Below are positions 28,019 through 61,334 of a stretch of 64,000 bases of DNA, piece after piece (within the stretch, counting starts at the first letter, position 1; every line of letters starts with the position of its first letter). The notes under the pieces were generated by a model. The model worked only from the letters and a program-made list of their open reading frames with translations. It was not told the origin of the DNA and did not search any database. Origin of the DNA: an uncultured Thermoplasmata archaeon (GTDB taxonomy: Archaea > Thermoplasmatota > Thermoplasmata > RBG-16-68-12); contig CAVYJM010000011.1 of assembly GCA_963768855.1 (NCBI GenBank), forward strand, positions 160,001-224,000. Reading direction: 5' to 3'. A program made the position numbers and the translations under genes.

Positions 28019-28029
28019 GTTCTAGGCGC

Positions 28030-28530: not shown

Positions 28531-28550
28531 GTGACTTCCTCCTGGAAGAC

Positions 28551-35457: not shown

Positions 35458-35539
35458 GGGTTCGTCACTTTCGCTCCCCTCTCCTCCACAACGCTTCATA
35501 TCCCCTGGCCCGTCGCTGGGCCTTGCGGCCCGAAGGTAG

Positions 35540-45805: not shown

Positions 45806-46498
45806 ATGGGCGAAGACGAGTTGCGCAAGGCCTTCCTGAAGGGCTATGAGGAAGGCCTGAAGGCCGCATGGCGCGAGATCGGGCTGCTGACCACCCGCGG
45901 GTACTCCTCCACGGAGCTCAGCGTCATGTCGAAGTCCAAGATGGCTGTCCTCTACCGGGACGTTGAATCGATGGCCGCGCGGCTCGCGGAGGAGGAGCCG
46001 GCGACGATCGGACCGAGCGTCCCCCAGCGGGACCTCGGAGGCCGCGGGTCCTACCTCGTGCGCGAGCCGAAAGCAGAGCGCATCTTCGACCTGTTCGCCG
46101 ACCTCCTCGGCGCGGGCGCCCGCGGGCTCTGCATCACCCGCACCCACCCGGATGACCTGCGCTCCCGGTACCGGCTCGAGGAATCGGGCTTCATCTGGCT
46201 GTCGAGCACGCCGGGGAAGAAGAGCAAGGGCATGGCGGTCGTCTCGCCGACGGGGCTCGTGGACATCGCCTCCGCGATCTCCGAGTTCGCCGCCCAGGGA
46301 GGCAACGCGGCCGTCCTCCTCGAGGGCGTGGAGTACATGATCGGCCAGAACGGCTTCTCGTCCTTCCTGCGGTTCCTCCAGAAGGTCAACGAGAAGATCG
46401 TCCTGAACAACTCGTACCTCCTGATCTCGGCGAACCCCGCGGCGCTCAAGGAGCAGGAGTACAAGCTCCTCGCGCGGGAGATGGTCGGGGAGATCTGA
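45806..46498 (+). CDS. DUF835-domain (inactive KaiC-like) protein
   Basis: GLCITRTHP, FIWLS, VLLEGVEYMIGQNGF..FLRFL. Confidence 0.85.
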   Translation: MGEDELRKAFLKGYEEGLKAAWREIGLLTTRGYSSTELSVMSKSKMAVLYRDVESMAARLAEEEPATIGPSVPQRDLGGRGSYLVREPKAERIFDLFADLLGAGARGLCITRTHPDDLRSRYRLEESGFIWLSSTPGKKSKGMAVVSPTGLVDIASAISEFAAQGGNAAVLLEGVEYMIGQNGFSSFLRFLQKVNEKIVLNNSYLLISANPAALKEQEYKLLAREMVGEI

Positions 46499-46504
46499 GG
46501 CGGC

Positions 46505-47140
46505 TCAACGCCCCGCGACGGAGAGGGCGGCACGCTTGAAGCTCGCCCAGTTCAGCGTGTGGTCATCCCGCATCAGCGAGACGAGCATGACGACCGTGAG
46601 TCCCTCCACGAGCTTCGAAACGATCCACAGGTCGTAGACGTTCTCGACCTCGGATAGGGGCCAGATCGGCACGACGAGGGAGATCCCGGCGAGGACGATG
46701 AGGAACACGGGCCATCCGAGGAGGTAGGGGTCGTACTTCGCCGGGAGCCGCGTGATCAGGATCCCGCAGGCGATCTGGACGGGGCCGATGATCGCGAAGA
46801 AGACCGCCTCGATGAGGGACTCGTTGATGTGGTCGTTGAAGGCGAACAGGTGCAGCGCGCCATCGAGGATGAACAGCGCCTGGATGAGGTACCGCTTCGA
46901 GTACACCGGGTCGTTCAGGAACCGGTTGTGGTTCTCATACACCGCGCCTCCGGCGGCGAAGAAGAGCCCGAACAGGGTGAAGAACAGGCGGTTGATCAGG
47001 CTGCCCGCGCTGTGCCCGCCCGTCGCCACCTCCTGGAGCACGATCAGGCCGATGTAGTCCGAGGCCCAGCCCAGCAGGATGATCAGCAGGCCGGAAATGA
47101 GGAAGACGTTCTCCGTGGTGAAACGGATCTTCCACTGCAT
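46505..47140 (-). CDS. Multi-pass membrane protein
   Basis: About 6 hydrophobic segments; start uncertain (47140 or 47152). Confidence 0.7.
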   Translation of the reverse strand: MQWKIRFTTENVFLISGLLIILLGWASDYIGLIVLQEVATGGHSAGSLINRLFFTLFGLFFAAGGAVYENHNRFLNDPVYSKRYLIQALFILDGALHLFAFNDHINESLIEAVFFAIIGPVQIACGILITRLPAKYDPYLLGWPVFLIVLAGISLVVPIWPLSEVENVYDLWIVSKLVEGLTVVMLVSLMRDDHTLNWASFKRAALSVAGR

Positions 47141-47232
47141 CGGCCCGCCCATGCGCAGGTCCGCCAAGAAGTTTCGCGCGGGCGAGAGCTCGCAAAAGCC
47201 TTTATGGGCCTCCGAGCTAACCGGCCTCCCGC

Positions 47233-47307
47233 GCTCCCGTAGTCTAGTCCGGTCAAGGATCGGGGCCTTTCGAGCCTCAGACGCGGGTTCGAATCCCGCC
47301 GGGAGCA
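47233..47307 (+). tRNA. tRNA-Glu (anticodon TTC), CCA not encoded
   Basis: Acceptor stem gctcccg/cgggagc, anticodon arm ggggc-ctTTCga-gcctc, T-arm gcggg-ttcgaat-cccgc; promoter-like aaaagcctttat at about 47194-47205. Confidence 0.95.
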
Positions 47308-47396
47308 TGATATTTTTTAGCACGGTGATGCACCGGTAGCATCATGTGTTGGTCAGTGACGAGCTATCTACTGGGGGATAGCGCGATCTTCACTGC

Positions 47397-47432
47397 GCCG
47401 TCGCTCCGCCGAGCGGCCCGAAGGGCTATGCC
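47397..47432 (+). repeat. Island intergenic repeat copy A
   Basis: gccgtcgctccgccgagcggcccgaagggctatgcc. Confidence 0.7.
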
Positions 47433-47512
47433 GAGATGGCAAGTCGGGAAGCTTCGCGAATGGCCAAGGTCCTTCTAAGGGTCCGCCTTGGGCGGGAGCA
47501 GGCGCATCCAGC

Positions 47513-48271
47513 ATGGTCTCCGTGGTGATCGATTCCCGGTTCCAGGGGCTCAAGGACATCGCCCTCGGCGGCTACGTCGGCGGCGTCCTGGCGGGCGGAC
47601 GGGCCGCGGAGGTCCGCTTCCTGCGACCCGCGCCGGTCGGACGCCCGTTGCAGGTCGGGGACCGCGCGGACGGAACTACGGCTCTCTTGGACGGGAAGAA
47701 TCTCTTGGCCCTCGCACAGCCTGCGGACGTGGATCTAGACGTGCCCGCGCCGGTCACGGCGGAGGAGGCTGCGGCGGCCACCCAAAGCTACCCCGGGCTC
47801 GATCGCCACCTCATCCCGGCCTGTTTCGTCTGCGGCCCCGGACGGCGTGAAGGCGACGGCCTGCGAATCTTCCCTGGCCCCGTGCCGGAGCGTGACCTTG
47901 TCGCCGCGCTGTGGACGCCGGATGTCTCCCTGGGCGGCCCAGATGGATGCGTCGCTCCCGAGTTCGTCTGGTCCGCCGTGGACTGCCCGAGCATCTGGGC
48001 TCTGGTTCACCGAGCGCCGCCCGACTCCAAGGAGCGGGTCGTGACCGCTCGCCTCGCCCTCCGGCCCGTGGCGCCGCTCCGCGTGGGCGAGTCCTGCGTG
48101 GTGACGGGATGGGCCGTCGGCGGAGACGCCCGGTTCCAGGTAGCCGGCGCGGCCGTGCGTTCAGCGGAAGGTCGTCTCCTCGCCGTGGCGCGGCACACCC
48201 TCGCGTCGACGGACTGGGGCGTGCCGCTCGGCCTTGACAAGTGGGGGACCGATTCGCGCCAACCCGCGTGA
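47513..48271 (+). CDS. Hotdog-fold/thioesterase-like hypothetical protein
   Basis: GGYVGG, CFVCGP...GLRIFPGP, VWSAVDCP; the fold is inferred. Confidence 0.65.
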   Translation: MVSVVIDSRFQGLKDIALGGYVGGVLAGGRAAEVRFLRPAPVGRPLQVGDRADGTTALLDGKNLLALAQPADVDLDVPAPVTAEEAAAATQSYPGLDRHLIPACFVCGPGRREGDGLRIFPGPVPERDLVAALWTPDVSLGGPDGCVAPEFVWSAVDCPSIWALVHRAPPDSKERVVTARLALRPVAPLRVGESCVVTGWAVGGDARFQVAGAAVRSAEGRLLAVARHTLASTDWGVPLGLDKWGTDSRQPA

Positions 48272-48381
48272 GAGTGCCTCCGCTTCCACGCTGTATGCCG
48301 CCCTGCTCCTCGTCGCCTCCCGGAGAAGAGCGCGAGTTGCTCGAGCGGGAGTCCAGCTATTCCTTCTGGATGCGCTGCGCG

Positions 48382-49362
48382 TCACCTCAAATGCTTCTGC
48401 AGGAACTCACGCTGCCGCTGGCTCGCCCGGTCAAAGACCGGACTTGGATGGTGGAGAAGGCCGAAATGACCTCCCTCCACCTCCACGAGTTCCTTGGGTC
48501 CCGAGGCCCGGTCGAAGGTCATCCGGGAGATGACGTCGCTTGCCCCGGGCATCTCGTCCCCCGGGGCGACCATCACGAGGAGGGGGACCTCGAGATGAGG
48601 GGTGCAGAGGGCGGGGTGCAGCGGGACCGACACAGCGGGGCCGCCGACAGTCGCCCAGTTTTCCCATCGGGTGCCGAAGCGGCCTCCGTACTCGATGAAC
48701 CATCGGAACGCCGTCAGCGGGGTGAGGAGCGAGGGAGCCCTGTGCTGGTCCGCGGAGACTACAGGCAGTGGGCCGGTCGTGGTCTCGGGCATGGTACGCA
48801 GGTCCCCGTGGAGGAGGGTCCCCTTAAGAGCTGCGAACAGCGAGCCGTTCGCGTCGGCGGGAGGCGGACCATCCCCGCAGGCGGGCACCTGCGCAACCAC
48901 CGCCTTCACACGAGCGTCGAAAGCCCCGACGACAAGAACCTCCGCGCCGCTCATGCTGTCGCCCCAGAGGGCGACCCGGTGGATGTCCACATCCTGTCTC
49001 TTGGCCAGGAAGTCGAGGGCATCGCGGTAGCCGCGAGCCTGCACCCACTTGTTGAGCTCCTGCCGTGGCTCGCCGCCGCTGATTCCGAGGTTGCGGTGGT
49101 CGTAGAGCAAAACCGCGAAGCCTGCCCGGTGGAAGACATCCGCGTAGGCATCGGCGACCATGCCCTGGATCGTTGCGGAGAAGCCGTGGGCCATGATGAC
49201 CGCGGGCGCGGACTCAGTCGCTCCCGCAGGGACATACAGCCTACCTCGCAGGGTCGCGCCTTGCGAGGGGAACTCGACTGCCTGGAACGCTGATTCCTGC
49301 GTCGGTCCTGGCGTCGGAGTCGTCCGATTTGGATGTGTCTCTCGCGGCGTCCTGCCTTTCAT
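48382..49362 (-). CDS. Alpha/beta hydrolase
   Basis: VIMAHGFS, YDHRNLGISGG, LWGDSMSG nucleophile motif, GGHF; ATG overlaps the upstream TGA. Confidence 0.85.
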   Translation of the reverse strand: MKGRTPRETHPNRTTPTPGPTQESAFQAVEFPSQGATLRGRLYVPAGATESAPAVIMAHGFSATIQGMVADAYADVFHRAGFAVLLYDHRNLGISGGEPRQELNKWVQARGYRDALDFLAKRQDVDIHRVALWGDSMSGAEVLVVGAFDARVKAVVAQVPACGDGPPPADANGSLFAALKGTLLHGDLRTMPETTTGPLPVVSADQHRAPSLLTPLTAFRWFIEYGGRFGTRWENWATVGGPAVSVPLHPALCTPHLEVPLLVMVAPGDEMPGASDVISRMTFDRASGPKELVEVEGGHFGLLHHPSPVFDRASQRQREFLQKHLR

Positions 49363-49814
49363 TCCAGCGCGCCTTCCCGGAGCTCCCAGAGGGCGTTGAC
49401 GATCAACCACCGCCTCTCCCCGAACTTGGCAAGATGAAGGTAGTCCACATACTGAGGCGAGACGCATCGGGCCGTGGCGACGTGGCGGAAGACATGGAGA
49501 ACATCAATCTGGTAGCCTCGCTGGGACGCGGGGACCTCGGTGCCGCCTCCCTGCCGAGTCGCCTCGACCATACCGTCGAAGGTGCTGGGACGCCTCAACT
49601 GCCAGGTCCCAGGCTCAGCGCCCGGGACGATTGTTCGCTTCACGAGATCCGGATGGAGGCAGCGGCGCATGCGTTCAGGGTCACCGTCGTACCACCCTCC
49701 GACGTAGTCCCGGATGGACTCAACGATGGAATCGTAGTCTTCCTGGGCCGGGAGCCAGTTTCCGCTCTCGGTGGACTTCTTCAGGTCATCGCCCCCCCGT
49801 TGAGAGGGCGGCAT
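49359..49814 (-). CDS. NTF2/SnoaL-like (lumazine-binding-like) protein
   Basis: DYVGGWYDGDPERMRRCLHP...YVDYLHLAK..RWLIVNALW. Confidence 0.8.
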   Translation of the reverse strand: MPPSQRGGDDLKKSTESGNWLPAQEDYDSIVESIRDYVGGWYDGDPERMRRCLHPDLVKRTIVPGAEPGTWQLRRPSTFDGMVEATRQGGGTEVPASQRGYQIDVLHVFRHVATARCVSPQYVDYLHLAKFGERRWLIVNALWELREGALE

Positions 49815-50061
49815 ATTGTTCGGCCTTAACTCTTTTCCTCTTTAGCGTGGAAGGGGAAAGTGCCCGCACTTGCGGGTGGCTACCGGCACTGGCCGCATCG
49901 CGAGCAGTGCCACCGGCCGTTTTGCGGAATCTGGGCGAGGGATTGACCGCAAAGACTACAGCACGGCGGCCCGGTCCAAGGACCCTCAACCGTAGGACCG
50001 ATTCCCACCGGATGATCAGCGGGGATCGCTCGATACACGCGTGAGGCCACCTTTCGGTCCC

Positions 50062-50144
50062 GAGGAAGGTGTCCTGCCTCCGTCGCCCCCTCGCGGCCGG
50101 AAGGGCTTTGCCCGATGAGGTTCGAAGCCACATGACTTCGAACC
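50062..50144 (+). repeat. Island repeat copy B (full, with 9-8-9 palindrome)
   Basis: gaggaaggtgtcctgcctccgtcgccccctcgcggccggaagggctttgcccgatgaggttcgaag-ccacatga-cttcgaacc. Confidence 0.8.
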
Positions 50145-50194
50145 ACTGTGGAAATGAAGGCCCGACGGAGAGCCATCGGACCTCTTGGGCCAGG

Positions 50195-50460
50195 TTACGT
50201 GCGTGCAGGCACTGGGATAGCTGGTTGGATTCCCGCGAGCATTCTGTCAACGACTTCCTGGAAGTCACGCAGGGAGCGTAGCTCGCCGGCTTCCATGGCG
50301 CGACGGCCATAGGCCTCCATGAGCTCCGTGTCACGCCCCACGAGGATTGCTTCGGCCTCCGGAAGGAGTTCCTCCTCGAGCTTGATGTGCTCGCGCTGCA
50401 TCGTCAGGTACGTGTGCGCGGCCTCGAGGAAGGCTCTGCCCGCGGATGGGTCCGTTGACC
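50195..50460 (-). pseudogene. C-terminal remnant of a hemerythrin (HHE) protein
   Basis: FLEAAHTYLTMQREHIKLEEELLPEAEAIL resembles the second HHE half; the upstream part is not protein-like in frame. Confidence 0.45.
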
Positions 50461-50647
50461 CGAGCCCGAGTCCGTCGCCCACCTTGGGCGTGTCTCCCTC
50501 GCTCCCTGCCCTTGGACGGTCTGTGGGAGCCCGCGGTGCGCCCCAGCCGAGCGTCTCGCATGACCCTCCCTTGAGGTTCTCCGAAAATTGCAACCCGGGT
50601 TTCGAAACCTTCTTAAACGCCGCGCGTCGCTACCACTCGGAAGGCCG

Positions 50648-51208
50648 ATGTCATTCGAAACGGAGGACTGTCAGCACCTCGTCGCGGACGCGGGAGCCAT
50701 CCTGGATCGGGACGGCGTGACGGAGGCGAGCTTGAGGGCCGTCGGCTCGCGGATGCAGCGTATCGCGGGCGCCTTCGAACCTCGCACGGTCGCGGGCCTC
50801 AAAGCCCTTCACGGGACGGGGTCCTCGTCCACGGTCCTCCACAGCGAATCCGTGGACGGGCTCACCCTCGCTCTATCCCGATTCCCCCCAGAGGCCGCGA
50901 CCCCGGTCCACAACCACGGGACGTGGGGCGTCGCCCTCGTGATCGAAGGCAGGGACCACCACATCCACTGGCGCCGGATGGATGACGGCTTGACCCCCGG
51001 GCGCGCCAGGCTCGAGATCGATGCCGACGAGATCGTCCCGGGGGGCGAGTTCGTCTCCTGGCTCGGGCCGCCGGGAGACATCCACAGTCAGCAGGGCGTC
51101 TCGGGGCCGGTGTACGAGCTCGTCCTCTTTGGCCGTAACGTGATGGTCCATCCCCGCCTGTATTTCGACCCCGCCGCGGGGACGGTCCGCGAGCGCTTGC
51201 CCCAATGA
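50648..51208 (+). CDS. Cysteine dioxygenase-like cupin
   Basis: TPVHNHGTWG and GDIHS metal motifs. Confidence 0.8.
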   Translation: MSFETEDCQHLVADAGAILDRDGVTEASLRAVGSRMQRIAGAFEPRTVAGLKALHGTGSSSTVLHSESVDGLTLALSRFPPEAATPVHNHGTWGVALVIEGRDHHIHWRRMDDGLTPGRARLEIDADEIVPGGEFVSWLGPPGDIHSQQGVSGPVYELVLFGRNVMVHPRLYFDPAAGTVRERLPQ

Positions 51209-51213
51209 CGGGG

Positions 51214-51257
51214 GGCCCCGCCCCCTCGCTCCCGAGCGGCCGGAAGGTTCGTATCCC
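51214..51257 (+). repeat. Island repeat copy C
   Basis: ggccccgccccctcgctcccgagcggccggaaggttcgtatccc, directly after the stop at 51208. Confidence 0.8.
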
Positions 51258-51271
51258 CTGCGGATGATACT

Positions 51272-51607
51272 ATGTCGGAGCGGGTGCGTGTGAGAACCCC
51301 CCAGAAGGTGGGTGTGCTCGGCATCGTGCTGATTGTCGTAGGGGCATCCTTCACGGTTCTCCTTCCGTGGAGCGGGACGACGCTCAGCGGTGCCTCGTAC
51401 CCCGTAGGAGTCGCCTTCTTCGCGCTCGGCGGAGCCCTGTTCTTCGTCGGTGTTATCTGGGCATGGGTGGTCGGGTTTGCGAACGCCACACGGGCATGGG
51501 ATACGGTTCGACGGCCGCTGTTTTGCCCCGCGTGCGGCCAGCGGTATCCGGAGGAGCAGGGACACACCTGCCCGAAGGATGGCTCGGAACTGAGACCCGT
51601 GGCGTAG
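51272..51607 (+). CDS. Small membrane protein with C-terminal zinc ribbon
   Basis: Two TM segments, then FCPACG...CPKDG. Confidence 0.7.
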   Translation: MSERVRVRTPQKVGVLGIVLIVVGASFTVLLPWSGTTLSGASYPVGVAFFALGGALFFVGVIWAWVVGFANATRAWDTVRRPLFCPACGQRYPEEQGHTCPKDGSELRPVA

Positions 51608-51613
51608 GTGACT

Positions 51614-51637
51614 CCGAGTCGGCCGGAAGAGCTACGC
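51614..51637 (+). repeat. Island repeat copy H (degenerate, right half only)
   Basis: ccgagtcggccggaagagctacgc versus consensus ccgagcggccggaagggctatgc. Confidence 0.55.
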
Positions 51638-52384
51638 ATTGCAACCCTTTGGGCATCGCCAAGACCCGTCGCCACCATCGTGCTCGTCGAGGGACTCGAT
51701 GTCCGGGAGCCACGCCTGACCGCATTTTCGACATTGGACGATGATGCGCTGGGAACCAACGATGTCCACGACTTCGAAGAAGGCGGAAGCAGGCGGCCTC
51801 ACGCCTGAACGAAGAAAGAACCGCGGATAAGGTCTTGCAGCCGGGGGGGCGGATATGAGGAAAGGGCCGAGGTCCGCAATGGACCCCGGCGTGCAGGGGA
51901 ACAGGGCGTCGGCTAACGAAGCACGAGGAGCGTCTCGATAGCATTCTGCTAAATTGCCCGGCTCAGGCCTATCATCCCGAGCATAGTGTCAAAGTTCAAT
52001 CCTCGCTGATTGAAGTCCCTGGCACATCGTTTTCTCTCCATATGGAAGGCAACTCGCTATGGGTCCGGACGGACCTGTTCTCTCCATTAAGTCAGTCTAA
52101 GGGGAAAGTGAGGCGACCGGGGGTGCCCAATCGCCTCATGCGGGGACAGTAGACCAGACGACGAATCTCGCCTCCACGCGCTGATTGATTCCGGTTTGAA
52201 GGATTGACCACGAATCCGCACGACGGCGCTCCACCCATACGCCCGGTGCAGATTTGGCCTGTACCTGTCGTCAAGGTACCGACTAGACTCCCGTGGCACC
52301 TTTCCCCTTCATGCTGCGCCCTCGCGGGCGCGGCCCCTTCCGGGGCAAACAACGACTAAGTGCCGGGAGCTGCATCTCGCCAGC

Positions 52385-52579
52385 ATGGCTCTCAAGATGA
52401 GCGCGACGGGGATCATTGAGGTGTTCGTCTTTCTTGGCGTGGCAACCGTCGCCCTACTGCTGGTTGGGGTCGCGTCGAGCATGGAACAAGTCTTTCTTCT
52501 CGGCATTGGAGTTCTAATCCTAACTGGCATCATGGCCGGGGTTGTGGTCCTCTACAGGGCGCTCTCCAGCCCGGAGTAG
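52385..52579 (+). CDS. Small 2-TM membrane protein
   Basis: 64 aa, hydrophobic. Confidence 0.55.
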   Translation: MALKMSATGIIEVFVFLGVATVALLLVGVASSMEQVFLLGIGVLILTGIMAGVVVLYRALSSPE

Positions 52580-52597
52580 GCGGTCTCGAGCACGGGC

Positions 52598-52951
52598 ATG
52601 CTCGTGTTCGCCGCGATGTCGGGCTCGAGACCTCGGCTGCGGCGGTGGGGAGCCCTCCTCGGCCTCTTGGCCTTCGTCCTCGCACTCGTTGCGCTCCTCT
52701 ACGTCCTGGTGCTGCTCCCAGGAGCCGCGACTCAAGACATCGGGGCTCCCGCCATTCTGTACTCGGGCTTCTGGGGTTCCGGAGACTACTCATTCATGCA
52801 TGGAGGTGCAACCGTCACCTGGGGAGCAGGATGGGCCTGGTACGCGCTCATGGCCGCGGCCGTCCTGTCTCTGATTGGCGTCATCGTCCTGTTCCGCGCG
52901 CGGGCACCATCCTCCATGCAGGCCGCTCCGCAGGCAACACAGCAGCCGTAG
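52598..52951 (+). CDS. Small membrane protein ending QAAPQATQQP
   Basis: Two TM segments and a TWGAGWAWY motif. Confidence 0.65.
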   Translation: MLVFAAMSGSRPRLRRWGALLGLLAFVLALVALLYVLVLLPGAATQDIGAPAILYSGFWGSGDYSFMHGGATVTWGAGWAWYALMAAAVLSLIGVIVLFRARAPSSMQAAPQATQQP

Positions 52952-52954
52952 TCC

Positions 52955-53040
52955 AGAGGAGAGTGCCCCCGCCCCGTCGTCCCCCGAGCGGCCGGAAGGG
53001 CTATGCCTCGAAGAGGTTCGAAGTCACATGGATTCGAACC
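52955..53040 (+). repeat. Island repeat copy D (full, with 9-8-9 palindrome)
   Basis: agaggagagtgcccccgccccgtcgtcccccgagcggccggaagggctatgcctcgaagaggttcgaag-tcacatgg-attcgaacc. Confidence 0.85.
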
Positions 53041-53130
53041 CGCCGGGTCACGGTCCCCTCTAGGCTGGGGGAGGACCCTCGGGCCTGCCTCCGCTACAGT
53101 TAAGCGGGGACATCCCTTGGGCCGGCCCTG

Positions 53131-53967
53131 GTGACGCCCATGGTTCCGAGGACCGCGGGGGATGCCTCTCAGCTCTGGACCGCCTTCCGCCACCAGTCTC
53201 TCTTCTACTTGCGGACGAACCGGTTCCTCGGGCTCCTCGCTGTGACTGTCGCCTTGGCCGCCGTTTTCCTTGCTTTTGAGCTGTATGCCGGGACCGCCTC
53301 GGTTTTGGCGACGAACCCGACAGCTTCCTCCTATCTCGCAGGGTCCCTTGGAAGCGTGGGGTTCAGCGTGGCCCTCACCGCCGCGTTCTTCGGAGGCGAT
53401 GCGATCGCGAGGGACTTCGGGAGCGCCACGGGGTACTATGTCCTCGTCCTTCCCGTGCGTCGGAGGGTCCTGCTCCTGGGACGGTACCTCGCAGCCTCCC
53501 TGGTCTCGTTCGGGGTCTTGCTCTCCTACTACGCCATCGCGGCGGCGGGCACCTGGTACTTCTACGGGGGCCTCCCCATGACCCTGGCGGCCTCCCTCGG
53601 ACTCGGGGCGCTTCTCACCCTCGCGACCGTGGCCTTCGCGTTCTTCCTGAGCTCCCTCTTTCGGAACCCGTCCGTGAGCATGATCGTGACCGTCCTCCTC
53701 CTCTGGATCGCCCTGCCTACCATTACCAGCGCTGTTGGCGAATTCGGCGGCATCGAGCCTTGGCCGTCTTTGTCCTACGGCAGTAATGTCGTCACCTTGG
53801 TCTTCGCAGGGAGCTACGCTCACGACTCCCTCATGACGATTGGCCCCCTAACGTTCCATGTCTTCCAGCCCTACATCTGGGAGGGGATCGCCATCATGAT
53901 CGCGTACCTCGTGATTTTCCTCGCAATCGCGGGCCTCCTGTACCGTTACAAGGAGGTCCGCGGATGA
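53131..53967 (+). CDS. ABC-2 type exporter permease
   Basis: FFGGDAIARDFGSATGYYVLVLPVRR..LLGRY; 6 TM segments. Confidence 0.85.
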   Translation: MTPMVPRTAGDASQLWTAFRHQSLFYLRTNRFLGLLAVTVALAAVFLAFELYAGTASVLATNPTASSYLAGSLGSVGFSVALTAAFFGGDAIARDFGSATGYYVLVLPVRRRVLLLGRYLAASLVSFGVLLSYYAIAAAGTWYFYGGLPMTLAASLGLGALLTLATVAFAFFLSSLFRNPSVSMIVTVLLLWIALPTITSAVGEFGGIEPWPSLSYGSNVVTLVFAGSYAHDSLMTIGPLTFHVFQPYIWEGIAIMIAYLVIFLAIAGLLYRYKEVRG

Positions 53968-54902
53968 CGTCGGGACCGAGCCTCGAAGCGGCCGACCTCA
54001 GCAAGGCCTACGCCCGCGTACTCGCGCTCGACGGCGTGTCGTTCCGGTACGAGGGGCCGGGGGCGATTGGCTACCTCGGGCCCAACGGCGCGGGCAAGAC
54101 GACGACCCTCAAGCTGTTCACGAGCCTCCTCCGGCCGACTCGCGGGCGGGCGTTCGTTGACGGCATCGACGTTGCGAAGAATCCGAAGGCGGCCCTCGCG
54201 GATGTGGGCGCATTGATTGAAACCCCCGAGCCCTACCCACGTCAGAGCGTGGAGGAGGCCCTGCGGATGGTGGGGGAGTTCCGGGGCATACCAGCTGAGG
54301 AACTCCGGGAGCAGATTGGGAAGTACGTCGAGGCTTTGGATCTTCCGCCCCTCGACGCTCGGATTGGCAGCCTCTCGAAAGGCCAGAAGCAGAGGGTCGT
54401 CTTCGCGGCGACGCTCCTCGGGGACCCACGACTGCTCCTCCTCGACGAGCCGACGAACGGCCTCGACCCGGCGGAACGGGTCCGGGTACGCGAGGTGCTG
54501 CGGGACCTCAAGAAGGACCGCCTCATCTTCATGAGCTCCCATCTGCTCCAAGAGGTCACGGAGGTCTGCGACCGCGTGATGTTCCTGAACCGGGGCAAGG
54601 TCCTCCTCGAGGACTCTGTCGCTCACTTGGCGGATCGGTTCAAGGCGACGCGGGTTGATGTGGAATTCAGTGCTCCGGTCGCCATGAATCGCCTCAGCCC
54701 GCTGCAAGGCCTAGCCCTAGGGGTCATGGCCCTCTCGGACCGCCGGCTGCGGATCGAGTTCGACGGATCCACGGAAACCCGCACGAAAATCCTCGTCGCG
54801 TGCCAGGCCGTCGGCGCCGTCGTCTCCTTCAGCAGCGCCGGCCTCGCGCTTGAGGATGCGTACCTCCAGCTGCTTCAGGGTTCAGCCAACGGCGGCCGTT
54901 AG
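53964..54902 (+). CDS. ABC transporter ATP-binding protein
   Basis: GPNGAGKTT, LSKGQKQR, LLLDEPTNGLD, SSHLL. Confidence 0.92.
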   Translation: MTSGPSLEAADLSKAYARVLALDGVSFRYEGPGAIGYLGPNGAGKTTTLKLFTSLLRPTRGRAFVDGIDVAKNPKAALADVGALIETPEPYPRQSVEEALRMVGEFRGIPAEELREQIGKYVEALDLPPLDARIGSLSKGQKQRVVFAATLLGDPRLLLLDEPTNGLDPAERVRVREVLRDLKKDRLIFMSSHLLQEVTEVCDRVMFLNRGKVLLEDSVAHLADRFKATRVDVEFSAPVAMNRLSPLQGLALGVMALSDRRLRIEFDGSTETRTKILVACQAVGAVVSFSSAGLALEDAYLQLLQGSANGGR

Positions 54903-54960
54903 CCCCAGCAGGCAACCCACCGGGCGGGCCGCTCCAAACGCAACCCAGCAGCTGTAGCCA

Positions 54961-55049
54961 AGAGGGAAGGTGCCCTCGCCCCGTTCGCCCCCGAGCGGCC
55001 GGAAGGGCATTATCCCCGGTGAAGTGCGAAATCACATGGAATCGAACCC
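54961..55049 (+). repeat. Island repeat copy E (full, degenerate palindrome)
   Basis: agagggaaggtgccctcgccccgttcgcccccgagcggccggaagggcattatccccggtgaagtgcgaaa-tcacatgg-aatcgaaccc. Confidence 0.85.
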
Positions 55050-55186
55050 ACGAGTTCGCTACTGATGTGTCAAGGGCGTCTTCGATGGCCGCCCACGCTA
55101 CTCCGACCTGAATCGGATGGCTCACGAGGTGCTAGCCGAACCTCGTGACGACGACCGCGACGGCAATCCAGAGGACGGCCGCTTTG

Positions 55187-56173
55187 TCAGGTTCTGTCGT
55201 TGTGTTCCAAAGTTATGACCACATTTCCTTTTTTGCGTCCTGTTTCGACATACCTGTGGGCCTCGGCGGTCTGCTCCAACGGATAGCGTCTGTCGATGAC
55301 CGACCTGATCTTTCCCGCCTCAATGAGCTCTTTGAGGGCGGTCAGATTCTCGGTGCTGAGGGGCGCTGCCCCACCGACTATTCTCTTGCCGCCTGTAACC
55401 GAAGTCCATCGCCCTCGAATTCTTGTTGACAGCGAAGGGTTACCCAAGAGTAAGATTCCTTCTTCCTTCAGTGATCCTACGCAACCCGAAAACGAACCCT
55501 TGCCTATCACGTCAAAAATGACATCATAGGTCTTGCCGCTTTTGGTGAAGTCTTCTTGAGTGTAATCAATGACATGGTCTGCACCAATGGAGCGCAGCAT
55601 GTCCAATTTCCCCGCGCTGTCCACGCCCGTCACCTCAGCCTCGAATGACTTGGCAAGCTGCACCGCAATGGTGCCTATGCTTCCACCCGCACCATTAATC
55701 AGAACCTTCTGTCCGCTCTGGATCCTTCCCTTTCGAAGAAAATGCAAGGCATTGAGTCCTCCGAGAGGAACGGCGGCAGCTTCCTCATAGGTCATGTTGG
55801 CTGGCTTCAGTGACACGCTTTCTTCAGGCAGACATGCGTACTCAGCATAGGCGCCAAAATGAAAACCGGTAGCAGCAAAGACCTGGTCACCTTTCCTAAA
55901 GCGCCTTACCTCTTTGCCTACTGATTCGATCTCCCCGGCTAGCTCCTGCCCCAGGATGGTTACTCTCTTTGGTCTTCTGAGACCCGTATACATTCGCATG
56001 AGGAGCCGGAACAAGATGGCGAGTCTGAGACTTCGCATCTCACAGTCCCCTGCTGTCACCGTTGTCGCGTGCACTCTTATCAGTGCTTCATTGTCCTTGG
56101 GATTCGGTCTTTCGACCTCTTGGAGCTCAAGACCATCCGGTGGTCCGTATTTTGTCCACACGATCGCTTTCAT
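55187..56173 (-). CDS. MDR-family NAD(P)-dependent oxidoreductase (alcohol dehydrogenase/quinone reductase-like), low GC
   Basis: [42 protein letters not shown]; AT-richer codons than the host. Confidence 0.9.
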
Positions 56174-56526
56174 GGGTCCCCTCCAAGAGGGCCTTGATCC
56201 GACCATCTTTCCATGTAGTTCTAAAATCTATCCCACGAGTTTGCCGGACCTAACCACCCAAGTTCTGTTGGGGCGGGGTCTCGCCCGCAGCCCCGGGTGG
56301 AAACCCCGAAGGAGCCGCCGAACGCCGTGAATCCTGCGGAGGGCGGGAACTCCGGCACCGGGAATTGCCTGCGCTCCCGAGGAACTCCGGAGGTCTCGGG
56401 TGGGGAACACAGTCTCGGATTCGCTATCGGGAATCCGGCGAGAGGCGCTAAGAGTGCGATTCCCACATACTCCGAGCGTCCGGTGGGAAACCGGCACACA
56501 CGACAGAAGAGAAGGGAGGGAAGACA

Positions 56527-57267
56527 ATGGAGTACCGTGCGAGTGGTTCGAACGAGCATATGATTGGAGAGACGAAGCTTTGGCGTTCCTCGGAGGCGCG
56601 CCTGCTTGAACCGCCAGCCAGCGAACTCCAGTTCGCCTTGGCGCGTGGGGCCGGGGAGCTGAGAGACCTCGAACGACGGATTCAGCGCATCCAAGCCTCG
56701 ACGGAGCGCGTCCTCGCCTCGAGCCGCGGGCTTCTGCCCGCCTACAGTCCGCTCGCCGCCGAGATCGCGGAGGCGGCACAGGAAGCTGAGCAGGCCCAGC
56801 GGCAGATTGGATCGACCCGGGCGTTCTTGGAGAACTCGACGGGACCCGTGGGCGCGGCCGGCGCATTCGCGGCGCTGGGCGCGGTCGCAGGTCCGGCCTC
56901 GAGCATCCAGGGCTCGCGAGGGAGCGAGTTCCCGAGCTCCCACGTCCGGCTACCTTTCGTGGAGATCCGGGACAACGGCAAGGAGTTCCTCGTGCGAGCG
57001 GAACTCCCGGGCATGTCCAAGGAAGACATCGAGGTCGAGGCTACGGAAGGCTCCCTCCGCGTCCTTGCGGAGCAGGAGGACAAGGCGACGGAGGCGGGGC
57101 AGCTCATATCCGGCGAGCGCCTTGCGAAGCAGTTCGAGCGGACCGTGGCATTGCCCGAGTACGTGGTGCCGAGCAAGGCCATGGCCGCGTTCCGTGACGG
57201 CATCCTCGAAGTGACGCTGCCGAAGAAGCACCCGGGAGAGCCCGCGCAGAGGTTGATCCTCAAGTGA
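56527..57267 (+). CDS. Hsp20/alpha-crystallin protein with long N-terminal extension
   Basis: PFVEIRDNGKEFLVRAELPGMSKEDIEV...FERTVALP...FRDGILEVTLPK. Confidence 0.85.
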   Translation: MEYRASGSNEHMIGETKLWRSSEARLLEPPASELQFALARGAGELRDLERRIQRIQASTERVLASSRGLLPAYSPLAAEIAEAAQEAEQAQRQIGSTRAFLENSTGPVGAAGAFAALGAVAGPASSIQGSRGSEFPSSHVRLPFVEIRDNGKEFLVRAELPGMSKEDIEVEATEGSLRVLAEQEDKATEAGQLISGERLAKQFERTVALPEYVVPSKAMAAFRDGILEVTLPKKHPGEPAQRLILK

Positions 57268-57485
57268 TCCACGAGGATCGGTACATAGTTCGCCGGGGTT
57301 GAGAGGCCTCTGCCTGCAGGGACAGGACATCGGTAGGCGTCGGCCTTGAGTCCTGGCAACTACCCGTCCATTGACTCGGATTTCAGAGGTATAGAGCAAA
57401 TCCGCACGACGGCAAACCTTGAGAACATGCAGAAAAGGCCGGGGCTTCGCTGCCACCCGTCGGAGACCATGTGCACAGAGGCTCT

Positions 57486-57585
57486 CCGCCGGGAGCACTC
57501 TCACACGAGGTCCTTTTTCCGGTAGCAGATGGGAAGGCCAACGGTAGCAACCTAACACTAGGTCGATCTTCCGGTAGCAGATGGG
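57486..57585 (+). repeat. tRNA-Glu 3' 12-mer duplicate plus cggtagca direct repeats
   Basis: ccgccgggagca is identical to 47296-47307. ttccggtagcagatggg occurs at 57517 and 57569, and cggtagca at 57542. Confidence 0.6.
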
Positions 57586-57599
57586 CCGGGGCTTATCCC

Positions 57600-57645
57600 G
57601 CTTCCACCCCATTTCCGCTCGCCGGAGCGGCCGGAAGGGCTATGG
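57600..57645 (+). repeat. Island repeat copy F
   Basis: gcttccaccccatttccgctcgccggagcggccggaagggctatgg; perfect ccgctc/gagcgg inner stem. Confidence 0.75.
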
Positions 57646-57677
57646 CGTGACCGGTCGATGCGGCTGCAGGGGGTGGA

Positions 57678-58037
57678 GTGATGCAACCGAATACGACAGA
57701 AAGCGGTCCGTCCGAGACACCATGCCGCGCTTGCGGCTCATCTGCGCGGTTGGTGGGGACCGAGCAATTTCGTGTAGGAGGCACGTCCGGTGGCTGGAAG
57801 CTGCTGTTCGGTGAATGGGCCGAGCTGGGCGAGGAGATGATGCCCCTTGAGATGTGGGTGTGCCCTTCCTGCCGTCGAGTAGAATTCCGAGTCCCCGTGG
57901 GCTACAAGCGACCGGATGAGGTCGCGCGGGGACTGCGATACGCATGTCCAGGATGTGGCGGCGATGTTTATCACGGTCAGACCGCGTGTCCCGAGTGCGG
58001 CTACGTGTTGAAGGATTCCCCCACGTCAGAGGGGTAA
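57678..58037 (+). CDS. Double zinc-ribbon protein
   Basis: CRACG, GGWKLLFGEW, VCPSC, CPGCG, CPECG. Confidence 0.7.
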   Translation: MMQPNTTESGPSETPCRACGSSARLVGTEQFRVGGTSGGWKLLFGEWAELGEEMMPLEMWVCPSCRRVEFRVPVGYKRPDEVARGLRYACPGCGGDVYHGQTACPECGYVLKDSPTSEG

Positions 58038-58083
58038 GGTCCCCCGCCCCGTCGCGCCCGCAAGCGGCCGGAAGGGCAATGCC
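58028..58083 (+). repeat. Island repeat copy G (overlaps the upstream stop codon)
   Basis: agaggggtaaggtcccccgccccgtcgcgcccgcaagcggccggaagggcaatgcc. Confidence 0.8.
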
Positions 58084-58183
58084 GGGACGGGCGAAGGGAG
58101 GATGGCGCGTCGCCGAACAACGACGAAGAAGGAGGAGGGAGGCTTACGCATGTTTAAGGTCTAGGGCGACGTCCACTCGGTTT

Positions 58184-58525
58184 ATGGCTAGACAAAAGCA
58201 CTCTGAACCCGCCCACGTTAGTGTACTTCGTGATGTACCTCCGGAGAATGCGTTCTACTTCTACGAAGGGATCGGTCAACCGACCGGTGTGGCTTCCAAG
58301 AACCTGGCTGAGTTCCGCGACCAGACGAAGGGCGCCAGTCCCACGTCCATCGAGTTTCACCTCGAGCGAGGCGATTTCGAGAACTGGTTCCGAATGTTGG
58401 GCGACGAGTCGCTCTCGCATCAGGTGGCCAATCTGAGGAAGCGAAGGCCCGCGGCCGACCAACTGCCCAGTCGTCTCTCGAGCCTTGTCGACTCGCGAAT
58501 CCGCCAGCTGCGGAGATCAGGGTAG
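58184..58525 (+). CDS. DUF5752-like protein
   Basis: VLRDVPPENAFYFY...NLAEF...SIEFHLERGDFENW. Confidence 0.7.
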   Translation: MARQKHSEPAHVSVLRDVPPENAFYFYEGIGQPTGVASKNLAEFRDQTKGASPTSIEFHLERGDFENWFRMLGDESLSHQVANLRKRRPAADQLPSRLSSLVDSRIRQLRRSG

Positions 58526-58881
58526 CCAGGAGCATTCGTCCTCCCGCAGGCAATGCAGCGTTTTCTCGGACTTCCTCCTGCGGCAGAGAATGCGCACCGA
58601 CGCGAAACGTCAACCGAGCCTGCAGCCCACGCTCGGTCAAGCGGGTCACCCTGCAAGATCCTGGCACACGATGCGAGCCGCTCTGGATCAATCCTCGGGT
58701 CCGACTCCTGGCCAACTCTCCTCCGTGCGGGTGAGCGCGCCAAGGACGAGGCGTTCCCGCGAGGCACCCCGGGGCGGCTCATTCCCGGGAGTCTGGCCCT
58801 TCGTGTCGCGCGGAGGGACGTCACGGCACAACCCTAAAATACGGAGGCCTTCATCGACGGGCGTCCCCTGCAGGCGTCCCC

Positions 58882-59868
58882 ATGCCCGAACTCCGGAAGG
58901 ACTACGTGACGGACACCTGGGTGGTGTTCTCCCCGGCCCGCTCGAAGCGGCCCACGGACTTTCACACCCAGACGCGGCCCACCGACAAGGCGAAATGCCC
59001 CTTCTGCCCGGGCCACGAGGCCATGACGCCGCCGGAGATCCTCGCGTACCGGAAGGATGGCTCTCCGAACTCCCCCGGATGGTGGATCCGCTGCATCCCG
59101 AACGCCTACCCTGCCCTCGAAATCGAGGGCGAGCTCCACCGACACGTCACCCAGCTGTTCCACAGCATGAGCGGCATCGGCGCCCACGAGGTCATCGTCG
59201 AGACGCCGGAGCACGCGGCCAACCTCTCCGCCCTGAGCGACTTCCAGATGCAGGAGGTGATCACCGCCTACAAGCAGCGGTACGTCGACCTCACGCGGGA
59301 CAAGCGGTTCAAGTACATCCTCATCTTCAAGAACCACGGAGAGCGCGCCGGTGCGTCGATCTCGCATCCGCACTCGCAGCTGATCGCGACCCCCATCCTC
59401 CCGCGCCATCTCCTCGAGGAGGTGAACGCGCTCCACCGGTTCTACGAGGCCACGGGCGGCTCGTGCATCTACTGCGAGATCGTGGAGACCGAACTGGAGG
59501 AGAAGCGGCGGATTGTCTCCGAGAACCGATCGTTCGTCGCGATCTCGCCCTACGCCGCCCGTTTCCCCTTCGAGACGTGGATCCTCCCGAAGTCCCACGA
59601 GAACGCCTTCGAGGACATCACCGACGAGGAGCGTGCCCCACTCGCCTCGATGATGAAGGACGTGCTCGGTCGCCTGTACCACGTCCTGGACGATCCCCCC
59701 TTCAACTTCTACATCCACACCTCGCCCTGCGACCGCAAGGAGGTCAAGTTCCACTGGCACGTGGAGATCACGCCGCGGCTCACGGAGACGGCAGGCTTCG
59801 AGCGCGGAACCGGGTTCTACATCAACCCGGTGATGCCCGAGGACGCGGCCTCGATCCTGCGCGGCTAG
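58882..59868 (+). CDS. galT: GalT-family hexose-1-phosphate nucleotidyltransferase
   Basis: ELRKD, RSKRP, CPFCPG, HEVIVETPEH, GASISHPHSQ, FHWH. Confidence 0.88.
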   Translation: MPELRKDYVTDTWVVFSPARSKRPTDFHTQTRPTDKAKCPFCPGHEAMTPPEILAYRKDGSPNSPGWWIRCIPNAYPALEIEGELHRHVTQLFHSMSGIGAHEVIVETPEHAANLSALSDFQMQEVITAYKQRYVDLTRDKRFKYILIFKNHGERAGASISHPHSQLIATPILPRHLLEEVNALHRFYEATGGSCIYCEIVETELEEKRRIVSENRSFVAISPYAARFPFETWILPKSHENAFEDITDEERAPLASMMKDVLGRLYHVLDDPPFNFYIHTSPCDRKEVKFHWHVEITPRLTETAGFERGTGFYINPVMPEDAASILRG

Positions 59869-61334
59869 ACGGCCACGGCGGACGGCCCGCCCGAGACGAT
59901 CGTCTTCAACCTCGAGCCCCACGCGCCCCGGGACCGCTCGTACCAACGGACGTACTGCGCCGCGGAGCTCTTCCAGGACAAGTCGGAGGCCATCGCCCTC
60001 TGTTGCAACGCCTTCCAGCCACGCCGCCCGCGGTAGAACTCCACGGCCCGTCGGGTCGTGTCCAGGAGGGCCTCTGGTGCGTAGTCCGAGAACACGAAGC
60101 CGTTCCCCTTCTTCGGGTCCCGGGCCACGTCTGTGACGGTGTCCACGAGTCCGCCCGTCGCGCGCACGATGGGCACGGTCCCGTACCGCAGGCTGATCAT
60201 CTGCCCAAGTCCGCAGGGCTCGAACTTCGAGGGCATGAGGAAGAAATCCGAACCGGCGTAGATCCGGTGCGCGAGGGCCTCATCGTACTTGAGGTAGGCC
60301 ACGAGGTTGTTCGCGTCCTTCGCGAGCTCCGCGAGGGGGTCCTCGTACTTCTTCTCCCCCGTGCCCAGGATGACCACCTGGGCGCCCAGCTCCAGGATGC
60401 GAGGGAGCGCGGGAAGGAGGATGTCGAGCCCCTTTTGTTCCGTGATCCGCGTGACCATGCCCAGCAGCGGGGCCTTCGGGTCCGTCGGGATTCCCGCCTC
60501 CTTCTGCAGCGCGTGCTTGTCCTCCGCCTTCCGGTCGATCGTCGATCTCGTGTACGTGCGGGGAATCTGGGCGTCCTGGGCCGGGTTCCACACGTCGTAG
60601 TCGATGCCGTTGAGGATGCCCGAGAGCTTCAAGCCGCGAGAGCGCAGGAGATCCTCGAGGCCGTACCCATACTCCTTGGTCTGGATCTCCTTCGCATACG
60701 TGGGGCTGACCGCATTGACGAGGTCCGCGTAGACGATGCCCGCCTTCATGAAGTTCAGCTTTCCGTAGAACTCGACGCCCTCGGGCCCCCACGACTCCGT
60801 CGGGAAGCCCATCCATTCGAACAGATCCCGGCCGAACAGTCCCTGGTGCTGGAGGTTATGGATCGTGAAGGCCGTGCGGATGCCGCGGTAGCGCTCGTCG
60901 CCCGCATACAAGGTCCGGAGGAACGCCGGGGTCATGGCAGAATGCCAGTCGTTGCAGTGAATCACATCGGGCCAGAAGTTTGCGGCAGGCAAGAGGTCGA
61001 GGAGCGCCTTGCAAAAGAAGCCGAAGCGCTCGCCGTCATCTTCGTATTCATAGACCTTCGGTCGGTCATACAGCTCCGGCTTGTCCACGAGGTACACTGG
61101 GACGCCATCAATGCTGGAGGTGAGCAAGTGCGCCTCGTCGGTCCTGCCTCCGATGCGTACCGGAAAGGCACCCAGGTTCTCCTGCGTGCCACGGATCATT
61201 CCGTAGCGGGGCAGCGCGAGCCGGACATCGTGGCCGAGGGACCGGAGGGCCTTGGGCAGGCTCCCCGCAACGTCGCCGAGGCCGCCGACCTTCGCAAGGG
61301 GGTAGGCCTCCGCTGCTGCGAACAGGACTTTCAT
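59865..61334 (-). CDS. glgA: Glycogen synthase (GT5)
   Basis: KVGGLGDV, HCNDWH, TIHNLQHQG, GILNGID, MPSKFEPCGLGQ, TGGLVDTV. Confidence 0.95.
   Translation of the reverse strand: MKVLFAAAEAYPLAKVGGLGDVAGSLPKALRSLGHDVRLALPRYGMIRGTQENLGAFPVRIGGRTDEAHLLTSSIDGVPVYLVDKPELYDRPKVYEYEDDGERFGFFCKALLDLLPAANFWPDVIHCNDWHSAMTPAFLRTLYAGDERYRGIRTAFTIHNLQHQGLFGRDLFEWMGFPTESWGPEGVEFYGKLNFMKAGIVYADLVNAVSPTYAKEIQTKEYGYGLEDLLRSRGLKLSGILNGIDYDVWNPAQDAQIPRTYTRSTIDRKAEDKHALQKEAGIPTDPKAPLLGMVTRITEQKGLDILLPALPRILELGAQVVILGTGEKKYEDPLAELAKDANNLVAYLKYDEALAHRIYAGSDFFLMPSKFEPCGLGQMISLRYGTVPIVRATGGLVDTVTDVARDPKKGNGFVFSDYAPEALLDTTRRAVEFYRGRRGWKALQQRAMASDLSWKSSAAQYVRWYERSRGAWGSRLKTIVSGGPSAVAV

Follow-up and report, generated by a model that had tools for sequence, protein, structure and literature searches.

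What is the short repeat that recurs between small, unrelated genes downstream of a tRNA-Glu gene in an uncultured Thermoplasmata archaeon? The repeat lies in a 64,000-nucleotide stretch of a metagenome-assembled genome (MAG), hereafter the window (G000:C11:160001-224000, where G000 is this genome, C numbers are its contigs, and other G numbers are the genomes of relatives). The MAG comprises 2.87 Mb in 24 contigs, with 66% GC, 94% completeness, and 7.7% contamination. A first-pass annotation, made from the letters of the window alone, had proposed that at least eight structured, co-oriented repeats delimit an array of gene cassettes, possibly driven by a recombinase encoded in trans. Here, we describe the repeat as a composite intergenic module that clusters in variable islands and is restricted to a small clade. 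With roughly even confidence, we take it to be a portable promoter and junction module for cassette exchange, situated in islands built by trans-acting integrative events; we infer both the promoter activity and the kind of recombination (homology or enzyme driven) from sequence.

Repeat copies were located with an nhmmer profile built from clear copies and with a covariance model. Eight copies were detected in the window, all on the plus strand and all within positions 47386 to 58093, downstream of the tRNA-Glu(UUC) gene that anchors the island (47233 to 47307, plus strand; ARAGORN, and 61 bits against the Rfam tRNA model). The 12-mer GCGGCCGGAAGG occurs exactly six times between 50093 and 58075, again only on the plus strand, and once more at 47413 with one mismatch. 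Allowing up to one mismatch, it has eight matches compared to 1.76 expected, a number that none of 100 shuffles reached. Positions, orientation, and the six exact 12-mers are thus as first annotated, with the copy at 51614 being weak. The additional remark that no copy was noticed in the first 47 kb holds for clear copies; the sole match there is a doubtful partial one (35498 to 35536).

The copies were called by the profile unless stated otherwise. Copy 1 (47386 to 47439) lies 79 nt past tRNA-Glu, carries one mismatch in its core, and is a resident copy, with a counterpart in the same position after the tRNA-Glu gene of G013. Copy 2 (50062 to 50120) is full length, with an alternative right arm (R2). 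Copy 3 (51205 to 51248), which begins at the stop codon of an open reading frame (ORF) at 50588 to 51208, retains the left arm and core only; copy 4 (51614 to 51637) retains a degenerate core and the right half and is weakly detected (nhmmer E = 2.4 only, and reading of the sequence). These two half copies pair around a single gene (51272 to 51607). The best copy, copy 5 (52956 to 53015; E = 7e-16), starts 5 nt past the stop codon of the ORF at 52598 to 52951 and has the R2 arm, as does copy 6 (54963 to 55014), which is preceded by a relic of the 3′ end of a gene like that at 52598. Copy 7 (57599 to 57657) stands 34 nt ahead of the start of a zinc-ribbon gene; this copy and the 145 nt upstream of it are also present at C11:228085. 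Copy 8 (58032 to 58093) overlaps the stop codon of the ORF at 57678 to 58037. A typical copy starts at or just past the stop codon of a small gene and ends 20 to 45 nt before the next start codon.

Alignment of 23 full copies resolved the module, about 55 to 60 nt long, into three parts. The left arm is C rich, about 30 nt long, and interrupted by indels; it is followed by a nearly invariant central block, CGGCCGGAAGGGC, then by (C/A)TATG, and finally by a right arm that exists in at least four versions. Version R1 is CCGGGACGGGTCGATG, R2 contains a TTCGAA hairpin, and further versions include an ACGGAAA type and a type of about 90 nt common to C4:2137 and two G013 copies. Right arms are quite different at the window copies at 50093, 52988, and 54995 and at several others. 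The R2 hairpin (8 to 9 bp, GGTTCGAAG...TTCGAACC), recovered by repeat-family search and folding, resembles the T arm of a tRNA and occurs on the plus strand at 53009 to 53040 as well as at 50113 to 50144 and 55017 to 55048; neither ARAGORN nor Rfam called it as a tRNA or RNA family. Across the 23 copies the core block is asymmetric, with no dyad symmetry, and the RYYYAAC and GTTRRRY end motifs of attC sites are absent from the consensus and from every aligned copy, in agreement with the first-pass annotation.

That annotation had also described the repeats as structured, a claim that folding analysis did not bear out. RNAalifold found no helix between the left and right arms, the folding energies of single copies equaled those of dinucleotide shuffles (z = −1.8 to +0.6), and arms from the same copy paired no better than arms from different copies (p = 0.35). 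The sole plausible stem, the 6-bp CCCGTC/GACGGG, is present in about 13 of the 23 copies because it is part of the consensus, and 72% of its cells are paired compared to 70% after shuffling. On these grounds, we rejected the reading of the repeat as a hairpin or structured RNA. A looser version, in which the repeat is a transcribed RNA element (a terminator, a 3′ untranslated or processing signal, or a small RNA), would suit the copies that begin at stop codons and the three window copies with a short hairpin in their alternative right arm. However, tRNA was the only match in an Rfam scan of positions 46000 to 60000 at E ≤ 1, no conserved fold or covariation was seen, there is no T-run, and the left arm tolerates indels, leaving an RNA element hardly likely at all. 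A 10-nt match ending at the discriminator base had suggested that the left arm derives from the tRNA-Gly(CCC) 3′ end; this idea was also dropped because no junction between this tRNA and the core was present in 38 congeners.

To place the window array in its genomic context, we applied the same profile and covariance model to the whole of G000. About 33 copies were found in about 12 clusters, each internally co-oriented. These lie on C11 (207-218k, which is the window array, 228-229k, and 418k), C4 (1.7-2.1k), C8 (5.3-7.1k and 24k), C15 (68.5k), C6 (325.8-326.7k, 374k, 744k, 875k, 885.6-886.7k, 929k, and 1069.5-1071.2k), and C7 (76.8-78.4k and 128.9-131.2k). Every cluster checked lies in a variable region, often anchored at a tRNA gene, rather than in conserved core DNA. 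Distances from the tRNA to the copy range from 0 nt at tRNA-Thr, where the left arm follows immediately, through the 79 nt at tRNA-Glu to 147 nt at tRNA-Arg(CCG). Fragments of the tRNA-Asn 3′ end lie at C6:1069483 and C6:1070685, and about 20 nt beyond each of them comes a copy and then a small gene. The intact tRNA-Asn gene (C6:1041397) adjoins an integrase in a frame of 429 amino acids (aa), and the same fragment recurs 28 kb downstream, delimiting an element of about 28 kb (C6:1041397-1069500). The C6 fragments are far-side att relics of this element, and tRNA-Asn therefore formerly adjoined the array directly. Two further observations concern DNA beside such clusters. The contig starts C4:1-1655 and C8:1-1653 are 97% identical and inverted, and in each the homology ends at or near a repeat array; a strain variant or a break in the assembly at repeated cassettes is the probable cause. 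Beside another variable island, C6:930239-930365 (L006:5240-5365) contains two 30-nt blocks, 65 nt apart, that are 97 to 100% identical in several congeners and may be an intron-containing tRNA missed by ARAGORN.

The scan was extended to 24 congeners and to 16 genomes from other families of the order. Strong matches were most numerous in G013 (26) and G009 (11), followed by G018 (3), G015 (2), G014 (2), and G005 (1). The repeat is abundant only in G013 and G009, which are the closest relatives found (87 to 92% protein identity over two flank genes), and the other congeners scanned have zero to three copies. In these relatives, too, copies are clustered and co-oriented, spaced 340 to 1,900 bp apart, and located at the same anchors: one copy follows tRNA-Glu in G013 before the contig ends, five are at tRNA-Asn in G013, and two are at tRNA-Thr in G018. 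Beside tRNA-Pro, a variable stretch of 1.4 kb on one metagenome contig includes a copy that is missing from G000 at this tRNA. Many congener MAG contigs end within about 1.5 kb past the gene preceding tRNA-Glu because strain-variable DNA breaks assemblies in this way; the repeat also accounts for the fragmentation of these MAGs at tRNA-proximal islands.

In public data, an exact 20-mer of the repeat was not found in viral contigs, and in a genome collection it occurred in three relatives only, plus two chance bacterial hits. A metagenome scan returned mainly chance matches and about 15 true contigs, in none of which a recombinase was noticed. Among public read sets, one freshwater-sediment run contained 38% of the words in Logan contigs of about 300 bp at a depth of 3 to 4, and two other runs matched only ABC-ATPase motifs. 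The lone joint near a repeat in these low-depth Logan contigs (52230 to 52970) proved to be a contig of the paralogous C6:1070.7k locus.

This distribution bears on the idea that the repeat is a selfish miniature element (of the MITE, REP, or REPIN kind) that spreads by itself and carries an outward promoter by accident. Multiple intergenic copies in a restricted lineage would be expected of such an element, and promoter-bearing Correia, ERIC, and REPIN elements are known (PMC3575422). Yet the copies are clustered and co-oriented in islands rather than scattered, they have no terminal inverted repeats, palindrome, or consistent target duplication, and a search of the 94%-complete G000 returned no gene of the Y1 HUH (Y1_Tnp), RAYT, or IS200 type. 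We consider a selfish origin very unlikely.

We next consider how the islands themselves vary. The limits of the window island were set by blastn of the window against G013 and G009: homology of 85 to 90% identity runs up to 47333 and resumes at 58822, with nothing in common between, so that the variable island spans 47334 to 58821. G009 has different genes beside the right flank. Conserved flanks with differing content were likewise seen at tRNA-Asn, tRNA-Thr, C6:325.8k, C11:227.6k, and C7:74.7k, and array content is mainly genome specific at tRNA-Asn (G000 versus G013), at tRNA-Thr (G000 versus G018), and elsewhere. The cassette-like architecture first proposed, with co-oriented repeats between small unrelated genes, is supported, and the content of the island differs among all three close genomes. 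Invariant gene content between repeats, or scatter of the repeat irrespective of variable regions, would have spoken against such an array; instead, the content of the window island varies and the clusters checked lie in variable regions.

Homology between loci tends to stop at the repeat. The ends of blastn high-scoring segment pairs of at least 150 bp that fall near copies cluster at −20 to +10 and at +19 to +36 relative to the core start. A cassette with a 115-aa ORF illustrates this pattern: it occurs behind tRNA-Thr (C6:743.6-744.5k), between two copies (C8:5.7-6.57k), inverted at C7:131.8-132.2k, and on C104 of G009, and its homology runs from within one copy (left arm or core) to within the core of the next. 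At the tRNA-Thr anchor, G000 and G018 are near-identical through the tRNA, left arm, core, and TATA-like box and then diverge into unrelated genes right past ...GCTATGCC; the tRNA-Glu anchors of G000 and G013 follow the same pattern. Because BLAST runs on through the similarity of the repeat itself, these exchange points are placed in or at the repeat and not at one nucleotide.

Insertions with a readable empty site were of several types. A 1-kb segment of G000 (C6:325834-326841), which is missing from G009, contains two copies and a zinc-ribbon gene and is flanked by the 10-bp direct repeat GAAGGGCTAA, which matches the core over 9 nt; in G009, the unoccupied site reads GAAGGACTAA and lies at a gene end. 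By its ends, this event alone resembles recombination at the core. Another G009 insert, of 0.6 kb (site 2), opens with CCCGAGCGGCCGGAAGGGCTATG at a stop codon and shows no clear duplication. In two other G009 inserts (1.5 and 4.2 kb), the repeat is internal, and the 11- to 13-bp duplications lie in promoter-like, AT-richer spots and bear no sequence relation to the core (T(T/A)AACCCTTTT and AATCCCTNANTCCC). Copies are also internal to the G000 inserts at C11:227.6-229.5k and C7:74.7-78.7k, neither of which has a readable duplication. Finally, Logan contigs L165-L168, from another organism, carry the 115-aa cassette with its own core and TATA as a 0.7-kb mini-element flanked by a 17-bp copy of the adjacent tRNA 3′ end; no integrase is present, and the duplication has the form of a classic integrase footprint. 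Given these varied types, the islands appear to be fed by several trans-acting integration routes, with the repeat mostly an internal junction of the inserts.

What might the conserved core do? The block CGGCCGGAAGGGC plus CTATG reads as an archaeal transcription factor B recognition element (BRE; CCGGAA) followed by a weak, G-rich TATA box (GGGCTATG). Downstream spacing is consistent with this assignment. The TATA part is retained in 47 copies. Counted in 15-nt bins over the 45 nt downstream of these, ATGs that open an ORF numbered 12, 15, and 11, compared to 1, 3, and 0 in a mirrored control. Nine or more unrelated genes begin 23 to 26 nt past TATGCC; in the zinc-ribbon family the start is at 34 nt, preceded by a GGAG box, and in the 115-aa cassette it is at 45 nt. 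The tRNA genes of G000 have BRE/TATA boxes of the GAAACCTTTATA type, with the site starting 36 to 39 nt before the mature 5′ end. A matrix trained on these tRNA promoters selected the register GGAAGGGCTATGCCGG (offset +6 or +7) in 40 of the 47 copies. In this register, an ATG located 24 nt past TATGCC places the site start 38 nt before the ATG, which matches the tRNA-promoter geometry, as expected for leaderless mRNAs.

Several observations weigh against this promoter assignment. The tRNA-promoter matrix gives the repeat 2.4 bits compared to a tRNA median of 12.5, a score equaled by 12% of random windows; the promoter would therefore be weak or atypical. Several copies face a convergent gene or do not have the TATA half (50093, 54995, and the left-only copies). 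The cases of ATG spacing include many paralogous cassettes, so fewer of them are independent. In addition, conservation is higher in CGGCCGGAAGGGC than in the TATA letters, an uncommon pattern for a plain promoter that would allow another protein to recognize the block. Considering both sides, we regard the repeat as a putative weak promoter that is probably activator dependent.

If so, it might be nothing other than a cis-regulatory operator and promoter of a regulon of accessory genes, with no role in gene movement and with arrays that reflect ordinary island turnover. The promoter-like register and ATG spacing fit this view, as do the conserved left arm, located where archaeal activators bind, and the presence in the islands of TATA-binding protein (TBP) paralogues and small ORFs that look like DNA-binding proteins. 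G000 has four TBP genes (C7:129071-129658, C6:149.2k, C24:1.5k, and C11:134.8k), of which one immediately follows a repeat copy and others occupy island-like DNA. However, all three parts of the module are alike before unrelated genes, even in stretches unneeded for binding, which points to common descent. Left-only copies persist without TATA, and the repeat is where homology between loci stops. Most of the congeners scanned lack the motif and have other genes in the same islands, and TBP paralogues are common across the genus in numbers unrelated to repeat copy number. A purely regulatory element is thus improbable. A plain promoter motif was also among the outcomes that the first-pass annotation had regarded as fatal to its proposal; the most conserved part of the repeat does have promoter geometry.

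As a separate observation on ORFs near the repeat, a conserved, very basic 40-aa ORF (starting MTGKGRKGSR) with its own strong BRE/TATA box lies directly upstream of four copies in two genomes: L010:6807-6929 (C7:128806-128928), L005:3524-3646 (minus strand), L033:4428-4550, and L034:5313-5435. Substitutions in it are mainly synonymous. It had no Pfam hit, no homologue in a word search, and only unnamed Atlas clusters.

An alternative that takes the nearly invariant core at face value is integron-like, site-specific capture. In this case, a recombinase encoded elsewhere would cut in the core (approximately CCGGAAGG) and move circular cassettes with one copy each, and the copy beside the tRNA would play the role of attI. 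Soil Thermoplasmata would then own a capture system in which a trans-acting recombinase crosses over in the 13-nt core, itself doubling as a BRE/TATA promoter, so that cassettes arrive with or behind a promoter and tRNA-proximal copies are the entry sites. Several features agree with this scenario: the block is 13 nt long, nearly invariant, and asymmetric; half copies, whether left only or right only, keep the core, and pairs of them flank a single gene at 51205/51614 and at rc3126/3709 (G013 L027); a 10-bp duplicate of the core borders one insertion; and resident tRNA copies precede variable content in co-oriented, rapidly turning over arrays.

The enzyme itself was not encountered beside an array. 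Tyrosine recombinases (PF00589) in G000 are at tRNA-Asn, two tRNA-Ser genes, and tRNA-Asp, in a XerA-like gene, and at C7:32k; the tyrosine recombinase genes include those at C6:1041571, C6:128330, C12:105892, C18:112748, and C7:32083. None of the PF00589 matches is beside any G000 array; the IntI-specific domain itself was not scored. In G013, with 26 copies and 98% completeness, the one PF00589 match genome-wide is on another contig. G000 also encodes serine recombinases (C6:144034, C6:145115, C7:66826, and C11:238368), one IS110 transposase, and four TnpB proteins, none of which adjoins an array. No recombinase was found beside any array in G000 or in the two repeat-rich relatives. Other evidence points the same way. 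The core lacks dyad symmetry and the repeat lacks a hairpin; breakpoints span about 30 nt (before the core, past GGAAGG, and past ATGCC); core-anchored detection biases half copies toward breaks beside the core; and four of the six readable insertions carry the repeat internally, with other direct repeats or none. With the array confirmed, the enzyme and hairpin missing, and the promoter geometry in place, recombinase-driven capture becomes a minority reading. We regard it as unlikely, both as an integron-like mechanism and as a lineage-specific system built on the promoter core.

The portable promoter and junction module would instead work as follows. Each downstream cassette would receive its own promoter from the repeat, often for a leaderless mRNA, and this promoter would probably need an activator that binds the left arm. 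Because the same 55 nt flank unrelated genes, the module would also serve as portable homology, and cassettes could be gained, lost, or swapped by recombination within it. The resident copy beside a tRNA gene would be a fixed entry point, and the islands would be built at tRNA 3′ ends and promoters by integrative elements acting in trans.

The genes carried by the window island were identified from Pfam scans, the ORF list, and composition, with tRNAs called by ARAGORN and Rfam. On the plus strand, and apart from the ORF at 50588 to 51208 (from the ORF list), these are an ORF at 47513 to 48271 (ORF list), the gene at 51272 to 51607 (membrane/zinc ribbon), small membrane ORFs at 52385 to 52579 and 52598 to 52951, an ABC-2 permease (53131 to 53967) and ABC ATPase (53964 to 54902), an Hsp20 gene (56527 to 57267), the zinc-ribbon gene at 57678 to 58037, and an ORF at 58184 to 58525. 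On the minus strand are an alpha/beta hydrolase (48382 to 49467), an NTF2-like protein (Lumazine_bd_2; 49359 to 49814), and a zinc-dependent alcohol dehydrogenase (55187 to 56206). The dehydrogenase lies in a low-GC stretch (about 0.60 compared to 0.66), is inverted relative to the array, and is probably a recent foreign insertion. Pfam supported the earlier calls of hydrolase, NTF2, ABC pair, low-GC oxidoreductase, and Hsp20; the ORF called a cupin had no Pfam hit. In tblastn searches, these cargo genes had almost no paralogues in other arrays.

The island also contains traces of other elements. Sequence matching identified a fragment of the tRNA-Asn 3′ end at 52211 to 52230 (plus strand), a foreign att relic, and a second fragment at about 57397 to 57414. 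A second copy of the tRNA-Glu end was not found in the window at three or fewer mismatches, and the island encodes no integrase (PF00589). Upstream of copy 7, TTCCGGTAGCAGATGGG occurs twice (57519 to 57535 and 57571 to 57587, 52 nt apart) inside two 44-nt direct repeats, and a near-identical word directly follows tRNA-Glu in a repeat-free congener (L023, G051); this motif may be an att relic of another element family. Elsewhere in the window, positions 28029 to 28328 and 28550 to 28849 form a 300-nt direct repeat (96% identity, 521 nt apart) that is unrelated to the junction repeat.

Compared with known systems, the arrays most resemble those of integrons: small, co-oriented ORFs, mostly of unknown or accessory function, follow a fixed first site, the repeat starts at stop codons, and content turns over rapidly among relatives. 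Clusters of attC sites lacking integron integrases (CALINs) likewise have no integrase nearby. Known archaeal integrons use canonical bacterial-type attC sites (Ghaly et al. 2022, PMC9668308). In contrast, the repeat described here has neither the attC hairpin nor the RYYYAAC/GTTRRRY ends, and no IntI accompanies the arrays; it is not an integron site. Integrons also rely on one Pc promoter, whereas here each cassette has a promoter-like box and arrays are anchored at tRNAs. The pdif (Xer) sites of Acinetobacter plasmids are 28-bp dyads (11-6-11) in alternating orientation, with the recombinase encoded elsewhere. Like the repeat, they are short conserved sites that bound small gene modules, but the repeat is asymmetric and its copies within each cluster are always direct.

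Archaeal accessory islands are usually attributed to integrases at tRNA genes. The arrays share with such islands and with decayed integrative elements a start at tRNA 3′ ends, and the 28-kb tRNA-Asn element has both an integrase and an att fragment; the window island, in contrast, has neither an integrase nor a duplicate of the tRNA-Glu end. Moreover, the repeat is the same behind each of several tRNAs and is therefore not an att duplicate derived from a tRNA. A bacterial parallel is the putative mobile promoter, in which at least 50 nt of highly similar upstream DNA precede nonhomologous genes within one genome and its close relatives, by a mode of movement that was left unexplained (Nijveen, Matus-Garcia and van Passel 2012, PMC3575422). 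The 23-copy alignment fits this operational definition. That survey reported no sharing between the two domains and described no arrays (PMC3575422); the present repeat differs in being arrayed, tRNA anchored, and archaeal (BRE/TATA) and in also bounding the preceding cassette on its 3′ side. Correia, ERIC, and REPIN elements are short, intergenic, multicopy DNAs able to supply promoters (PMC3575422), but they are inverted-repeat or palindromic and dispersed, and the repeat is neither.

These findings bear on how single genes are shuffled and expressed inside archaeal accessory islands. One short module ends one cassette, appears to supply the promoter of the next, and is the point at which homology between islands stops. 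A dedicated recombinase-driven capture system, if true, would be the exciting outcome. If the portable promoter and junction module is confirmed, it would give an abundant, uncultured lineage of soils and sediments a simple "plug-and-express" junction for foreign genes. It would also be an archaeal equivalent of integron arrays and bacterial mobile promoters that works by a different mechanism.

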